64,000 nucleotides of DNA from Thermoanaerobaculia bacterium (GCA_035544895.1 DASZZM010000009.1:3797-67796), one strand, 5' to 3'; shown: positions 741 to 4,305, counted from the stretch's first letter. A program made the numbers and translations. Notes: generated by a model from the sequence alone, not told the origin.

Positions 741-962
741 ATTCCCAAGACGAAATTGCCGCGAGAGGGTGGGGGCGTCCCCTTCCCCCGGAGGGGAGGT
801 AAGGGAGTCGAGAGGTCGCGGGGGGAGATCCAAAACGAAACTGCCGCGAGAGGGAGGGGGCGTCCCCTTCCCCCCCGGAGGGGAGGGAAGGGGATCGAGG
901 GGTTGCGGGGGGAGATCCGATCGACGCTTTGAGTAGTCCACCACCGCCACTTCGCAGTGCCG
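741..962. repeat. Two tandem copies (about 90 bp unit) of a structured G-rich intergenic repeat: [77 protein letters not shown]
   Basis: Unit 1 spans about 741-831. Unit 2 spans about 832-962 and carries an extended tail (gctttgagtagtccaccaccgccacttcgcagtgcc). A third copy lies at about 4178-4305. Each unit contains nested GGGG/CCCC hairpin-forming segments and G-tracts. Confidence 0.7.
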
Positions 963-1116
963 TCTCATCCCGAGGCTACCCACCATCTGTGCAAATCGGA
1001 CCTGAGAACTTTTTTTTGGATTATCATTGGGGCTCTGCTCGCTCGCGCGCCGCGCCGGGCGCCTGGCGTCGTCCATCCAGGCGACGCCTGGCGTGCCTCC
1101 GGCCGGCAGAAGACGC

Positions 1117-2196
1117 ATGAAGCCACCCAGCCACCCATCCCGCAGCAAGATCCTGTTCATCTGCGGGTCGCTCAACCAGACCACGCAGATGCACCAGATC
1201 GCGCGGGAGCTGCCCGAGCACGACCACTTCTATACTCCCTACTACGGGCACGGCACGATCGAAGCGCTGCGCCGCGCCCGCATGCTCGAGTTCACCGTCC
1301 TCGGCTACAAGCTGCGCCAGCGTTGCCTCGACTACCTCGCCCGCCACCGGCTGCCGCTCGACGTGCACGGCAGGGCGCGCGCCTACGACCTCGTGCTCAC
1401 CTGCTCCGACCTCATCGTGCCGCGCAACATCCGCCGCCACCGCGTGGTGCTGGTGCAGGAGGGCATCCTCGACCCCGCGGGACTGGCCTTTCGCCTCTGC
1501 CACGGGCTGCCGTTTCTGCCCCTCTGGCTCGCGGGAACCGCCACCACCGGCCTGTCCCACCGTTACGAGCGCTTCTGCGTGGCCAGCCATGGCTACCGCG
1601 ACCTCTTCGTGGCCAACGGCGTCCGCCCCGAGCGGATCGCGGTGACCGGCATCCCCAACTTCGACGACTGCCGGCGCTACGAGCGCAACGACTTCCCGCA
1701 TCGCCACTTCGTGCTGGTGTGCTCCTCCGACGCGCGCGAGACCTTCAAGCGCGACGACCGGCGCGCCTTCCTCGAGCGCTGCCTGGCGATCACGGGTAGC
1801 CGGCAGCTCATCTGGAAGCTCCATCCCAACGAGAACGTCGCCCGGGCGACCCGCGAGATCCAGGAGCTGGCGCCCGGCGCGCTGGTCTACGCCAGCGGCT
1901 GCGCCGAGGAGATGATCGCCAACTGCGACGTTCTCATCACCCAGTACTCCTCGACCGCTTTCGTCGGCGTGGCGCTGGGCAAAGAGGTGCACTCCTACTT
2001 CGGAGCCGTGGAGCTGCGCCGCCTGCTGCCGCTGCAAAACCGCGCCGCGGCGCGCAACATCGCCGCCGTCTGCCGCGAGCTGCTCAGCGGCAAGCAGACG
2101 CCGGGCGCGAAGCTCCTCTGGCTGGGCGGCCGGCGCGCTGCCCGCGCCGCACGGCCTTCCCGCGTCGCCGCCCTGCTGCGTTCGAGGGTGCGTTGA
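1117..2196 (+). CDS. GT-B-fold glycosyltransferase-like protein, possibly a SpsG/PseG-like UDP-sugar hydrolase/transferase
   Basis: ATG at 1117 (MKPPSHPSRSKILFICGSLNQ...), in frame inside the longer ORF 1027-2196. It is the first gene of a co-directional cluster with SpsF-like and NeuB-like genes, matching the SpsE/F/G arrangement. Its stop overlaps the next gene's start (TTGA). The family assignment rests only on weak pattern recognition. Confidence 0.5.
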   Translation: MKPPSHPSRSKILFICGSLNQTTQMHQIARELPEHDHFYTPYYGHGTIEALRRARMLEFTVLGYKLRQRCLDYLARHRLPLDVHGRARAYDLVLTCSDLIVPRNIRRHRVVLVQEGILDPAGLAFRLCHGLPFLPLWLAGTATTGLSHRYERFCVASHGYRDLFVANGVRPERIAVTGIPNFDDCRRYERNDFPHRHFVLVCSSDARETFKRDDRRAFLERCLAITGSRQLIWKLHPNENVARATREIQELAPGALVYASGCAEEMIANCDVLITQYSSTAFVGVALGKEVHSYFGAVELRRLLPLQNRAAARNIAAVCRELLSGKQTPGAKLLWLGGRRAARAARPSRVAALLRSRVR

Positions 2197-3053
2197 GGAT
2201 CCTGGTCGTCGTCCAGGCGCGGATGGGATCGACCCGGCTGCCCGGCAAGATCCTCCTGCCGCTCGCCGGGGCGCCGATGCTGAGCCGGCAGATTGAGCGC
2301 ATGCGCGCCGCCGCGACGCCGTTCGAGCTGGTGGTGGCGACGACCCACGATCCTGCCGACGACGCGGTCCACGACCTGTGCCGCCGGCTCGGCGTGCGAT
2401 CGACCAGCGGCCACCCCACCGACCTCCTCGACCGCCACTACCAGGCGGCGCGGCAGGCCGGGGCCGAGGTGGTGGTCAAGATCCCCTCCGACTGTCCGCT
2501 GATCGACCCTGACGCGATCGATCGCGTGCTCGGTTACTACCTGCGCCAGGCCGGAAGCTACGACTTCGTGAGCAACCTGCACCCGGCGAGCTGGCCCGAC
2601 GGCAACGACGTCGAGGTCCTGCCGTTCGCCATCCTGGAGACCGCCTGGAAGGAGGCCGCCCGGCCGCTCGAGCGCGAGCACACCACCCCGTTCGTCTGGG
2701 ACCAGCCGGAGCGCTTCCGTGCCGGCAACGTCCTCTGGGAGACCGGCGAGGACTTCTCGATGAGCCACCGCTTCACCGTCGACTATCCTGAAGACCATGC
2801 CTTCGCGGCGGCGGTCTTCGACGCCTTGTGGACGCCCGCCCGCCCGGTCTTTCCCCTGGCCGAGATCCTCGCGCTGCTCGACGCCCGGCCCGAAATCCTG
2901 GCCGTAAACCAGCGCTACGCCGGAGTCAACTGGTACCGCCACCACCTGGGAGAGCTCGCCACCGTCGCTCCCTCCCAGACCCGCTCGCCCGCGCCGGCGG
3001 CGGCGGGCCAGGGAAGCCCGCGCGATCGCCGAGAGGCGGAGGCGGGCCGGTGA
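2193..3053 (+). CDS. Acylneuraminate/sugar cytidylyltransferase family protein (SpsF/NeuA/PseF-like)
   Basis: N-terminus MRILVVVQARMGSTRLPGKILLPLAGAPML is the hallmark of this family. It has a TTG start overlapping the upstream stop, and its own stop overlaps the next GTG (GTGA). Confidence 0.75.
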   Translation: MRILVVVQARMGSTRLPGKILLPLAGAPMLSRQIERMRAAATPFELVVATTHDPADDAVHDLCRRLGVRSTSGHPTDLLDRHYQAARQAGAEVVVKIPSDCPLIDPDAIDRVLGYYLRQAGSYDFVSNLHPASWPDGNDVEVLPFAILETAWKEAARPLEREHTTPFVWDQPERFRAGNVLWETGEDFSMSHRFTVDYPEDHAFAAAVFDALWTPARPVFPLAEILALLDARPEILAVNQRYAGVNWYRHHLGELATVAPSQTRSPAPAAAGQGSPRDRREAEAGR

Positions 3054-4135
3054 CGGTCGCCCGCGAGCGCCGAGCCGGCCGCACCGCCGCCGAGCGGGGG
3101 GATTCCGGGGCGGGGGCGCCCACCGCGGAGGCCAGCGGGGTCGAGGCCGCCGGCCCGGCCCCGGCGGCGGCCGCCGTTGGCGGTGCGGCATCGCGCCGGC
3201 CGTCAGGCCGGCCGGCTGATCTGACGGCGGCAGGGGCTCGCGTAGCAGCCGCAGGCTGGGAGCTCGCAGCGGCCACCGGCTGGGAGCTCGCCGAGCTGCC
3301 GGCCCTGGCGCTCGAGGTGCGCGAGCACATCGTCCGCATGGCGACGGCGGGCGGCTGTTTCATCGGCGCCTCGCTCTCCTGCGCCGATCTGCTGGTCCAC
3401 CTCTACACCCGCGTGCTGCGCATCACGCCGGAGACCTTGGGCGATCCCGGCCGCGACTACCTCTTCCTGTCCAAGGGCCACGACGTGCCGGCGCTCTACG
3501 GCACCCTGGCCGAGCTCGGCTTTCTGGAGCGCGAGCGGCTCGCCAACCACCTGTCGACGGGCGACTCGATCTACTGGCATCCCAACCGCGCCGTGCCGGG
3601 CGTCGAGTTCCACTCCGGCTCGCTCGGGCACCTGCTCTCGGTCGCCCTCGGCGTCGCCCTGGACATCCGGCTGCGCGGCGGCGCCAACCGCGTCTGGGTC
3701 ATCCTGGGCGACGGCGAGCTCGACGAGGGCTCGGTCTGGGAAGCCTGCCTGGTGGCCAGCGCGCTGCGGCTCGACAACTTGATCGCCATCGTCGACCGCA
3801 ACGAGTTCCAGGCCAACATGCGCACCGAGGAGCTCGTCCCGCTCGAGCCGGTCCCGGCCAAGTTCGAGGCTTTCGGCTGGAGCTGCGTCGGAGTCGACGG
3901 CCACAGCTTTGCCGCTCTCGACGCCACCCTCCGCCCGCTGCGCGAGGCGCCGCTCGCCCCCGGGCGGCCCAGCGCGGTGGTGGCCAGGACGGTGCGCGGC
4001 AAGGGGCTGCCCTCGATCGAGGCGCGCGCCGACCGCTGGTTCGCCAACTTCACCGCCGACGAGGTCGCCGGCCTCCTGCGCGAGCTGCACGGCGGCAAGG
4101 CCACCCTGACCAGCGAAGGCCTGGTGGTTAGATGA
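3050..4135 (+). CDS. Transketolase N-terminal (thiamine-diphosphate-binding) subunit of a split transketolase
   Basis: GHDVPALYGTLAELGF, WHPNRAVPGVEFHSGSLGHLLSVALGVAL and ILGDGELDEGSVWEA are transketolase TPP-binding motifs. The start is ambiguous: GTG 3050 (coupled to the upstream stop; gives an Ala/Gly-rich low-complexity N-terminal extension), GTG about 3317, or ATG 3338. The ORF-track start at 2828 is rejected because it overlaps the upstream gene by 225 nt. Confidence 0.75.
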   Translation: MTVARERRAGRTAAERGDSGAGAPTAEASGVEAAGPAPAAAAVGGAASRRPSGRPADLTAAGARVAAAGWELAAATGWELAELPALALEVREHIVRMATAGGCFIGASLSCADLLVHLYTRVLRITPETLGDPGRDYLFLSKGHDVPALYGTLAELGFLERERLANHLSTGDSIYWHPNRAVPGVEFHSGSLGHLLSVALGVALDIRLRGGANRVWVILGDGELDEGSVWEACLVASALRLDNLIAIVDRNEFQANMRTEELVPLEPVPAKFEAFGWSCVGVDGHSFAALDATLRPLREAPLAPGRPSAVVARTVRGKGLPSIEARADRWFANFTADEVAGLLRELHGGKATLTSEGLVVR

Positions 4136-4177
4136 GTGAGGTAGTGGATAAGACGAAACTGCGTGCGCCTAGGCCGA

Positions 4178-4305
4178 ATGTGCGCGCGTCAGGGGAGGGG
4201 GCGTCCCCTTCCCCCCCGGAGGGGTGGGAAGGGGATCGAGGGGTTGCGGGGGGAGATCCAATAGATGCTTTGAGTAGTTCACGACCGCCGCATCGCAGCG
4301 CCGAG
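4178..4305. repeat. Third copy of the G-rich structured intergenic repeat (full-length form with the gctttgagtagt...tcgcag tail)
   Basis: Near-identical over about 110 nt to copy 2 at 852-962. It lies between the transketolase N and C subunit genes. Confidence 0.7.

Follow-up and report, generated by a model that had tools for sequence, protein, structure and literature searches.

G-rich repeats in a sugar operon of a Thermoanaerobaculia bacterium are probably copies of a lineage-wide, non-coding mosaic element

The window analyzed here is a stretch of 64,000 nucleotides (64 kb) from a Thermoanaerobaculia bacterium, and includes a sugar operon that encodes a split transketolase. Pfam places transketolase N (TK-N) at 3050-4135 and transketolase C (TK-C) at 4329-5282; P0001 (317 aa, 100% identity) begins at the ATG at 4329. 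Six other junctions of the operon are ATGA, GTGA or TTGA overlaps. A G-rich repeat is present as three copies on one strand, all in the sense orientation of the operon. Two of these form a tandem pair that is followed by a tail (745-993), and this cluster, upstream of the NeuB-type sugar operon, appears to separate two divergent promoter-proximal regions. The third (4149-4328) lies between TK-N and TK-C and abuts the TK-C ATG. The original prediction had correctly recognized the three copies, as well as the interruption of a translationally coupled operon by the third of them, but its boundaries (741-962 and 4178-4305) were too narrow. The features of the locus are as follows.

607-625, + strand: 19-nt relic of an L module, CGCGAGAGGGAGGAGGCGT, matching the L module at 845-863 at 18 of 19 bases
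646-722, no strand assigned: perfect inverted repeat with 29-nt arms (646-674 and 694-722, 100% complementary) and a 19-nt spacer
745-831, + strand: repeat unit 1 (nhmmer match 746-833, E = 3e-16; TRF period 87)
745-777, + strand: L module of unit 1, CCAAGACGAAATTGCC...GGGGGCG
778-806, + strand: core hairpin of unit 1, slightly degenerate
807-831, + strand: G-rich tail of unit 1
832-918, + strand: repeat unit 2 (nhmmer match 832-993, E = 1.5e-43)
832-862, + strand: L module of unit 2
863-894, + strand: core hairpin of unit 2, TCCCCTTCCCCCCC-GGA-GGGGAGGGAAGGGGA, in the predicted MFE and centroid structures
895-918, + strand: G-rich tail of unit 2, TCGAGGGGTTGCGGGGGGAGATCC
919 to about 993, + strand: R module of the upstream cluster, GATCGACGCTTTGAGTAGTCCACCACCGCC...CATCCCGAGGCTACCCACCATCTGTGC, at profile positions of about 101-170 and aligned with the R modules of other genomes
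4132-4135, + strand: left ATGA, with the TK-N stop TGA at 4133-4135 (alignment of the window with relatives L094 and L095)
4136-4328, + strand: insert between TK-N and TK-C (nhmmer match 4175-4331, E = 3e-39)
4149-4168, + strand: partial L start, preceded by 13 nt of filler at the left edge of the insert
4169-4203, + strand: full L module of the third copy
4204-4235, + strand: core hairpin of the third copy
4236-4259, + strand: G-rich tail of the third copy
4260-4328, + strand: R module of the third copy, ending in GGCCGGTGGCAACC
4329-4332, + strand: right ATGA, with the TK-C start ATG at 4329-4331 (same alignment)

The tandem pair was resolved by TRF as 2.0 copies of an 87-nt period with an 88% match (745-918), and a repeat search of the window aligned 852-962 with 4193-4303 at 92% identity. 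The 64-kb window contains the 18-mer GGGGCGTCCCCTTCCCCC at three positions only (772, 857 and 4198), always on the + strand, and an nhmmer search over the same window returned no fourth copy. The distal end of the R module at 919-993 is decayed. The relic at 607-625 has a local alignment score of 33, to be compared with 17.7 +/- 2.6 (maximum 30) for shuffled sequences; it may be the remnant of an older, internally deleted copy, and a comparable deletion derivative is present at L023 1359-1451. The hairpins and G-tracts that had been predicted are borne out, since the core hairpins at 863-894 and 4204-4235 contain 14 bp each and the window's only two four-tract G4 motifs (tracts of at least 4 G), at 880-912 and 4221-4253, fall within the repeats (copies B and C). 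Independent short-read contigs of the source sample break at the core (window 928-4212 and 4260-5530).

Comparison with close relatives is informative. In L094, in which TK-C is 93% identical and the flanks are near-identical, and also in L095 (74%), there is no element, and a single ATGA forms the overlap of the TK-N stop with the TK-C start. In the window, ATGA is found both at 4132-4135 and at 4329-4332, so that the insertion is flanked by ATGA on both sides and the reading frames of TK-N and TK-C are both intact. L093 (94%) carries an insertion at this same junction, with two extra nested hairpins. The split-transketolase junction therefore exists in three states among close relatives: a 4-nt overlap, a 193-nt insert and a 267-nt gap containing the insert. 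The upstream cluster has two units in the window, four in L093 and none in L094, and a block of about 400 nt that includes the palindrome is missing from L094. Between orthologous copies, the core has changed more slowly than the L module. Closely related genomes differ through gain, loss, expansion and nesting of copies. Since L094 has none of the window's copies, insertion into the sugar operon would be recent, and the copies in the window are probably recent insertions or expansions. The TK junction provides the only clean pair of filled and empty sites; here the insert is bracketed by ATGA and begins with 13 nt of filler, unlike the CTAR ends found elsewhere. The occurrence of the same junction with and without the element amounts to a natural experiment in operon evolution.

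The element is not unique to these three sites, the family being dispersed over at least 15 genomes. A scan of species-representative genomes with the 18-mer core matched at least 91 blocks of 8 kb, at least 84 of them in 15 Thermoanaerobaculia/Acidobacteriota MAGs, and among the matches listed at least 29 blocks are from SMAG_U6239 and at least 20 from MFD01721.bin.1.239. A profile search (nhmmer) of the matched loci yielded 173 segments in 105 clusters. Seven of the listed 18-mer matches come from other lineages, are not recovered by the profile and are apparently coincidental; three of the seven sit in a shared gene, where TGGGGCGTCCCCTTCCCC encodes WGVPFP. Gene context was taken from a home-made codon-model gene caller validated on the window alone, and by this measure about 99 of the 105 clusters (~94%) are intergenic against a background that is 85% coding (binomial p about 1e-74). 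Contexts with the element comprise 48 tandem, 29 convergent and 5 divergent gaps (background 271, 48 and 65; chi-square p = 8e-7), convergent gaps being enriched (35% vs 12.5%) and divergent gaps depleted. There is no orientation bias with respect to flanking transcription (23 vs 24 in tandem contexts) or to local GC skew (50 vs 53), for which the skew of an 8-kb block is a weak proxy. Multi-unit clusters are all direct tandems, and among the 105 clusters no opposite-strand neighbor was found within 600 nt. The only recurrent neighbors in the 8-kb blocks are ABC/MacB-FtsX paralogues; within these blocks no transposase or RAYT-like gene adjoins any copy, and no insertion sequence was found in the ~730 kb of DNA flanking the copies. 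In Proteobacteria and Firmicutes, repeats of the interspersed mosaic type have been studied extensively; we found no description in the literature of any in Acidobacteriota, and the G-rich family is previously undescribed, abundant and "junk-like".

A full element of ~175-180 nt consists of an L module, 0 to 8 tandem cores and an R module. The L module consensus is CTAR followed by RACGAAAYT...GGGGAGGGGGCG, and that of the R module is GCTTYGAGTAG, a small hairpin and then GGTGGSNS-CTAR. In each core unit (63-87 nt), a C-rich/G-rich hairpin of 14 bp, invariant in sequence except for its variable apical loop, precedes TCGAGGGGWTGCGGGGGG. The longest tandem core array has 7.9 copies of a 63-nt period with 99% identity, and the L and R modules that flank one and the same core differ from genome to genome. 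In 21 of 101 cores the apical loop contains nested inserts of 36-130 nt, with mini-hairpins nested up to three deep. In 101 units from at least 15 species, conservation is 88-100% for the stem and for the tail TCGAGGGGWTGCGGGGGG, figures that are partly imposed by the exact 18-mer search, and the apical loops and the L and R modules vary. Across species the core is far more conserved than the L module, beyond what would be expected of a purely neutral parasite, and this strong conservation would allow for a function in the host or in enzyme binding. Most full-length copies have CTAR at both ends, beyond which the sequence is unrelated. The 5' and 3' CTAR of one copy are often non-identical, so that no simple target-site duplication is demonstrated, and the aligned termini of ~25 full-length copies contain no terminal inverted repeats. 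CTAG occurs 18 times in the window, ~10-fold below the prediction from composition, and 13 of these occurrences are intergenic. The L-end hairpin is weak; the R-terminal hairpin has two compensating versions, TCGCC-GCA-GGCGG and TCGGC-ACC-GCCGG, with a signal not above controls.

A priori, the presence of three sense copies, in the 5' region and between the transketolase halves, together with a stable hairpin predicted in the RNA of the element, might suggest an operon-specific cis-regulatory RNA, with a leader upstream of the first gene and, within the operon, an attenuator or processing site controlling the ratio of the two transketolase subunits. Both of these roles had been put forward for the repeats, and we now consider this reading extremely improbable. 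The 93% and 74% relatives keep the ATGA overlap with no element, the upstream cluster is missing in the former and has four units rather than two in the 94% relative, and the element adjoins unrelated genes in 15 genomes, in both orientations. Rfam 15 gave no match at gathering thresholds over the 64 kb, with generic hairpin noise only at E <= 10. The covariation that had been suggested as a check is absent, in that the RNAalifold term is -0.03 and pair counts do not rise above shuffle and slide controls. Whole-element fold energies are no better than those of shuffles (z between +0.2 and -1.7). No copy has a terminator-like T-tract on either strand, the hairpin being followed by TCGAGGGG, and a G+C-rich hairpin that lacks a T/U tract does not match an intrinsic (Rho-independent) terminator. 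Nor is the arrangement that of a CRISPR array, since the tandem units directly abut and share 88-99% identity along the entire period. A dedicated operon regulator is rejected because the copies belong to a dispersed family and appear to be recently inserted, with no counterpart in a close relative.

Mobility could also be explained by a classical MITE, that is, a deletion derivative of an insertion sequence with an IS630- or IS5-type DDE transposase, whose mobilization would rely on terminal inverted repeats and duplicate a TA or YTAR target site. CTAG/YTAR is a known target of IS630 and IS5, and the length (90-250 nt), the intergenic location, the high copy number and the CTAR at both ends of most full-length copies would all fit. 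This origin is nevertheless improbable, for the 5' RACGAAAYTGG is unrelated to the reverse complement of the 3' GGTGGSNS, the CTAR pair is often mismatched within a copy, the sole clean empty/filled pair has ATGA instead of CTAR, and the ~730 kb of flanking DNA contains no insertion sequence. A somewhat larger, still small, probability attaches to a structural or protein-binding element exapted by the host, in which the hairpin and G-tracts are kept because they are useful anywhere; this is compatible with mobility. Such an element could stabilize mRNA 3' ends, block transcription between convergent genes independently of a U-tract, bind a protein of the nucleoid or topoisomerase type, much as BIMEs bind IHF and gyrase, or act as a hairpin/G-quadruplex switch. 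The conserved stem and tail amid variable loops and modules, the faster divergence of the L module, the enrichment between convergent genes and the restriction of the window's four-tract G4 motifs to the elements are in its favor. However, the conservation is in part a product of the search, the enrichment at gene 3' ends would follow equally from a YTAR/CTAG target preference combined with selection against promoter hits, close relatives dispense with the element at the same sites, and neither a T-tract nor favorable fold energies were found. Since there is no orientation bias, any exapted role must act on both strands.

We conclude that the repeats most probably belong to an interspersed mosaic element that is non-coding, non-autonomous and lineage-wide in Thermoanaerobaculia, similar in kind to REP/BIME, BOX and ERIC. 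The REP/MITE-like family proposed at the outset is thus strongly supported, by its occurrence in many genomes, almost always between genes, and by its presence or absence in close relatives. Such an element would spread in trans, by an enzyme independent of terminal inverted repeats, the likeliest kind being a single-strand, hairpin-recognizing transposase of the HUH/Y1 type, as in REP-RAYT or IS200/IS605-derived elements. Because the transposase search covered only 8-kb blocks, this mobilizing enzyme is purely something that we infer. The enzyme would favor CTAG/YTAR, a rare tetranucleotide that, at 70% G+C, would be found mainly at stop codons and between genes, and the core copy number would then be altered by slippage or unequal recombination. 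The third copy would have landed precisely at the ATGA where the TK-N stop and the TK-C start overlap. Effects on the operon would be a by-product: TK-N and TK-C would no longer be translationally coupled, and the mRNA would contain a stable hairpin or a stretch prone to form G-quadruplexes. More speculatively, and with only a slight chance of being right, the family may constitute a new class that lacks terminal inverted repeats and is mobilized as single-stranded DNA, the C/G hairpin and G-tract core serving as a recognition module for a Thermoanaerobaculia enzyme or host factor and also as a preferred landing pad. If so, this would be a self-assembling "Russian-doll" repeat system centered on a hairpin/G-quadruplex switch, not a decayed insertion sequence.

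The architecture, L-(core)n-R with n = 0-8 and dispersed between genes, is that of a BOX/BIME-type mosaic. BOX of Streptococcus pneumoniae, organized as boxA-boxB(n)-boxC, likewise has three modules with a tandemly variable middle one, and is short, non-coding and intergenic, with stable stem-loops and no transposase of its own. The likeness is architectural and no sequence relationship is expected at about 70% G+C. BOX belongs to one species group whereas the present family occupies many species of a class, its core is a G4-capable hairpin rich in G/C homopolymers, and its L and R modules are swapped between lineages. The REP/BIME/REPIN repeats of Proteobacteria, which are mobilized by RAYT (Y1 HUH) transposases, are also abundant extragenic hairpins in mosaics that lack terminal inverted repeats, concentrated at the 3' ends of genes and in convergent gaps, and here too there are many extragenic copies per genome, as in the two genomes named above. 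A REP-like GTAG is contained in the GAGTAG of every R-module type but, unlike in REP, it is followed by non-palindromic sequence, and the core hairpin is preceded by GGGGGCG. A REP unit measures 20-40 nt as against 175 nt here, the copies are direct tandems and never the inverted pairs of REPINs, and no RAYT gene lies near them in the 8-kb blocks. PATEs, derived from IS200/IS605, share the absence of inverted termini and, less securely given the weak L-end hairpin, may share small subterminal hairpins near both ends; CTAR, which precedes the element on the left and closes its right end, would fit cleavage 3' of the tetranucleotide with no true duplication. Elements of the IS200/IS605 type frequently show an orientation bias relative to GC skew; such a bias is missing here, as are a cognate tnpA or tnpB around the copies (8-kb blocks), a left-flank CTAR at the TK junction and a match to any known Rfam family, including any curated IS605-type guide RNA families. 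Correia/NEMIS of Neisseria and ERIC/IRU of enterobacteria resemble the family as 100-200-nt intergenic, sometimes intra-operon, strain-polymorphic elements that are often co-transcribed with neighboring genes, and ERIC, too, is conserved across genera. Correia and ERIC are built on long terminal inverted repeats (with a TA duplication in Correia), whereas the present family has none and possesses a repeatable internal module.

These results bear on annotation, since the hairpin/G-tract block in the sugar operon is a family-wide repeat and is not to be called a riboswitch or attenuator. The repeat also breaks short-read assemblies and inflates ORF calls. With its cross-species core, interchangeable end modules, tandem amplification and nested insertions, the family should be a practical tool for typing strains in metagenomes from soil and sediment, as well as a lead to the putative mobilizing enzyme.

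The palindrome near the upstream cluster had been described as a 28-bp perfect inverted repeat at 657-732 that could be a repressor operator or REP-like. It is indeed a perfect inverted repeat, with arms of 29 bp at 646-722. Neither the window nor ~730 kb of related loci yielded a second copy or membership of a repeat family, and it is a singleton that appears to stand outside the G-rich family. Folded as DNA, it has a predicted energy of -50.7 kcal/mol (z = -10.7).

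Reading of positions 1-4800 together with repeat finding confirmed that the G-rich repeat occurs as a tandem pair and, about 3.3 kb downstream, as a third copy, all on the plus strand. The tandem pair at 745-918 has a period of 87 with 2.0 copies and 88% matches (TRF), and the second upstream unit (copy B) shares 92% identity with the third copy (copy C) across 111 nt. The 18-mer GGGGCGTCCCCTTCCCCC is found exactly three times in the 64-kb window, which has a G+C content of 70%, and a profile search revealed no copy there beyond these three. A Pfam scan provided the gene context in which the copies lie:

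1-525, minus strand: HTH protein
745-993, plus strand: two tandem repeat units and a right module
1117-2196: unknown 359-aa protein
2193-3053: CMP-sugar-type cytidylyltransferase
3050-4135, plus strand: transketolase N (TK-N)
4149-4328, plus strand: third repeat copy
4329-5282: transketolase C (TK-C)
downstream of transketolase C: class-III aminotransferase and, further on, NeuB

The six tight overlaps ascribed to this operon are indeed present, with TTGA, GTGA or ATGA at 2193, 3050, 5279, 7563, 8275 and 9174. Should the GTGA-coupled start at 3050 prove genuine, TK-N carries an N-terminal extension of about 90 residues that is of low complexity and rich in Ala, Gly and Arg (3050-3320, plus strand); its Pfam domain begins at residue 99. 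Many TK-C homologues have similar Ala/Pro-rich extensions. The notion that these long extensions are translated elements was rejected; they are Ala/Pro-rich linkers.

The original prediction raised the possibility that the repeat belongs to a larger family, and its copy number bears this out. At least 91 blocks in species-representative genomes match the 18-mer, and 84 of those listed fall in 15 MAGs assigned to Thermoanaerobaculia or "Acidobacteriota". Among the matches listed, SMAG_U6239 contains at least 29 blocks, MFD01721.bin.1.239 at least 20 and MFD01721.bin.1.17 at least 8. The other seven listed blocks, from Gemmatimonadota, a myxobacterium, an alphaproteobacterium and a haloarchaeon, gave no profile match; one gene is common to three of them, and they look like coincidences within coding sequence. 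A profile of the element built from 15 full-length copies, when searched against the blocks and the window, identified 173 segments in 105 clusters. A single IMG/VR match lacked a profile match and was rejected as chance, and no match emerged when plasmid and phage collections were searched with blastn. Independent short-read (Logan) contigs assembled from SRR12277192, the source sample, break off at or within copies of the repeat (one spans window positions 928-4212 and another 4260-5530, leaving 4213-4259 unassembled), and contigs that end inside the core are expected of a multi-copy sequence. As a practical warning, the family fragments assemblies.

Alignment of the full-length copies reveals three modules, outside of which the flanks are unrelated from copy to copy. 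The left module (L) consists of CTAR followed by RACGAAAYTGGTCCGTGCGCCAGGGGAGGGGGCG. The core is a hairpin, TCCCCTTCCCCCCC-loop-GGGGWGGGAAGGGGA, and then the G-rich tail TCGAGGGGWTGCGGGGGGCGATCC. The right module (R) reads GATCGATGCTTCGAGTAGGCC...CGCAGCGCCGTTTCATCCCTCGGGG-TCGCC-GCA-GGCGG-TGGSNS-CTAR, and its small terminal hairpin exists in two compensating versions, CGCC/GGCG and CGGC/GCCG. CTAR is found at both ends of the element, the two tetramers of one copy often being different, and there are no terminal inverted repeats. In the window the upstream cluster has the layout (L-core)2-R, and the downstream copy consists of a partial L start and then L-core-R, the R end of which directly adjoins the ATG of TK-C. 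The number of core units varies among copies, the longest arrays reaching 7.9 units of 63 nt with 99% identity (locus L075, with arrays also in L092), and an internal-deletion derivative is present in L023. In other genomes the same core is joined to quite different L and R modules, with GAGTAG recurring in R. Conservation over 101 core units is 88-100% in the stem and in the G-rich tail, and the apical loop is variable (3-4 nt; GGA, GTG, TCG and others). In 21 of these units the loop carries inserts of 36-130 nt, each again a hairpin, with nesting as many as three levels deep. Examples of this second layer of mini-elements are found at L020 2957-3140, L061 1060-1277 and L093 3815-3910. They include a 38-nt variant with a long hairpin, GGCGCCGCCGGGCAGG followed by GACCCGGCGGCTTCCGACAACC, and this in turn hosts inserts of about 40 nt composed of a hairpin plus ACTYCCGGNAGGTCGG, in which the hairpin sequences differ and the pairing is kept.

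TK-C homologues were traced on their contigs. In a contig from a sister sample (L094), the TK-C protein is 93% identical and the flanking DNA nearly identical; in a second (L095), TK-C is 74% identical. Both have the TK-N/TK-C overlap, as ...GGTGGTCAGATGACCTA..., without the element. The window junction reads ...AGATGA, 193 nt and ATGACCTA..., so that ATGA flanks both sides and both frames are intact. A 94% relative (L093) possesses the same insertion with the same idiosyncratic R module and two additional nested hairpin inserts, giving a TK-N/TK-C gap of 267 nt. Upstream of the first gene, L094 is missing about 400 nt (window ~586-985), among them the palindrome, the two repeat units and an L relic; a short C-rich relic alone is left, and the DNA on either side (480-566 and ~1000-1180) is nearly identical. 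The L093 upstream cluster has four L-core units, compared with two in the window. Of two other species pairs, one (L030/L053) has kept a copy at an orthologous site, and another (L027/L033) has copies in adjacent but different intergenic gaps and is too diverged for insertion boundaries to be defined. The element is a modular, intergenic repeat of many genomes, and even between close relatives its copies have appeared, disappeared, multiplied in tandem and become nested. L093 also carries an extra partial R fragment in reverse orientation (4965-5013, minus strand) between TK-C and the aminotransferase, genes that overlap in the window (GTGA at 5279).

Placement relative to genes was determined with a codon log-odds caller trained on the loci, which reproduces the Pfam-supported genes of the window. 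About 99 of the 105 clusters are intergenic, whereas 85% of the surrounding DNA is coding (binomial p ~1e-74). The intergenic regions that hold elements (48 tandem, 29 convergent and 5 divergent) differ from element-free regions of the same blocks (271, 48 and 65, respectively; chi-square p = 8e-7). Between tandem genes the element is co-oriented in 23 cases and anti-oriented in 24, its orientation does not follow local GC skew either (50 vs 53), and no inverted pairs were found. Roughly one element end in four overlaps a stop codon: the 5' end does so with TAR when the upstream gene is co-oriented, and the 3' end with CTA when the gene is convergent. In L081 (854-1025, minus strand) an element occupies exactly the interval between two genes that run in the same direction, supplying the upstream TAG stop from its 5' CTAG and ending with a 3' CTAG 2 nt ahead of the downstream ATG, an arrangement that mirrors the transketolase junction of the window. 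CTAG is about 10-fold rarer in the window than base composition predicts (18 seen vs ~176 expected), and 13 of the 18 are intergenic, as are 28 of the 43 occurrences of YTAR. Because CTAG is scarce and mostly intergenic, a CTAG/YTAR preference alone would place copies at gene ends.

An attenuator or cis-regulatory RNA had been proposed as an alternative to a dispersed element. G-tracts capable of forming a G-quadruplex are indeed present at the sequence level: the window has 13 motifs built on tracts of three or more G, and the only two that have four tracts of four or more G lie inside copies B and C. Since the 3' arm of the hairpin is made up of two of these tracts, hairpin and quadruplex are mutually exclusive. 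Against an RNA role, Rfam gave no match at gathering thresholds in the whole window, and at E <= 10 the two regions concerned returned only generic hairpin noise (miRNA precursors, Pab91). Among 22 full-length copies no covariation rose above controls: the core stem is invariant at every pair, RNAalifold gives a covariation term of -0.03, and the number of pairs is no higher than in shuffle or slide controls. Folding energies of whole elements are ordinary for their composition (z +0.2 to -1.7), and the element contains neither a hairpin-plus-T-tract terminator on either strand nor a sigma-70-like promoter. Together with the lack of an orientation preference and the element-free sites in relatives, these negatives remove attenuation and cis-regulatory RNA as primary explanations, and the element does not serve the sugar operon as a dedicated regulatory device. 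Its effect there is likely to be incidental, in that translational coupling of TK-N and TK-C would be lost and the transcript would gain a stable hairpin. A CRISPR array was also considered and rejected, since the repeat units are contiguous.

A dispersed element of this kind may have spread in trans through an enzyme that does not need inverted termini, and changes in core number would most simply arise by unequal recombination or by slippage during replication. A tentative candidate for the enzyme, somewhat short of an even chance, is an HUH/Y1 transposase that recognises hairpins and is RAYT-like or IS200/IS605-like; it fits the absence of terminal inverted repeats, the subterminal hairpins, the fixed tetranucleotide at the left flank and right tip, and the loop insertions. 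The lack of skew bias counts against this model, and the single clean junction, ATGA plus a 13-nt filler, sits awkwardly with it. No gene of the HUH/Y1 type was seen in ~730 kb around copies. All-versus-all clustering of 594 proteins called around copies, carried out in search of a partner transposase, returned as recurrent clusters only paralogues of the ABC ATPase and MacB/FtsX permease kinds, Uma2, sulfatases and kinases, and the small genes of the window encode PIN/RHH toxin-antitoxin pairs, a TIR-domain protein and rubrerythrin. Overall, the repeats very probably constitute a family whose kind is known from BOX, BIME/REP and ERIC elements. Literature searches turned up nothing relevant, and in the literature searched this is the first such family found for Acidobacteriota. 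It may be used in annotation and strain typing, and offers a lead to a mobilising activity.

The inverted repeat near the upstream cluster is real but had been misplaced; its true arms lie at 646-674 and 694-722 (29 nt each, 100% complementarity, 19-nt spacer). Folded as single-stranded DNA it has an energy of -50.7 kcal/mol (z = -10.7), and no T-tract is associated with it. The palindrome adjoins a 19-nt L-module relic, within the inserted block between two conserved promoter-proximal regions, and is absent from L094. No other copy was found in the window or in any of the fetched loci. A metagenome scan with the arm gave 0 matches, as did a control pattern known to be on a JGI contig (L093), so little can be read from this negative. 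A resemblance by eye to the end of the R module was not significant, and derivation from it was rejected. The palindrome may be an operator, a relic of inverted duplication or another mini-element.

Several other loci in the window were noted. Directly downstream of the NeuB sugar operon, 11794-12510 (plus strand) encodes a CAP12/Pycsar-type TIR effector-domain protein (PF10137, E = 1e-33), conserved at the equivalent place in the 94% relative (L093 9985-10701). Two adjacent VapBC-like toxin-antitoxin pairs (PIN plus ribbon-helix-helix) lie at 12614-13974 (minus strand), and a third, solitary PIN-domain gene at 22863-23282 (plus strand). Finally, 28489-47952 (minus strand) contains, among other genes, four paralogous proteins of ~950-1050 residues on one strand, and the one that was scanned combines a Ser/Thr kinase domain with PD40/WD40-like beta-propeller repeats.
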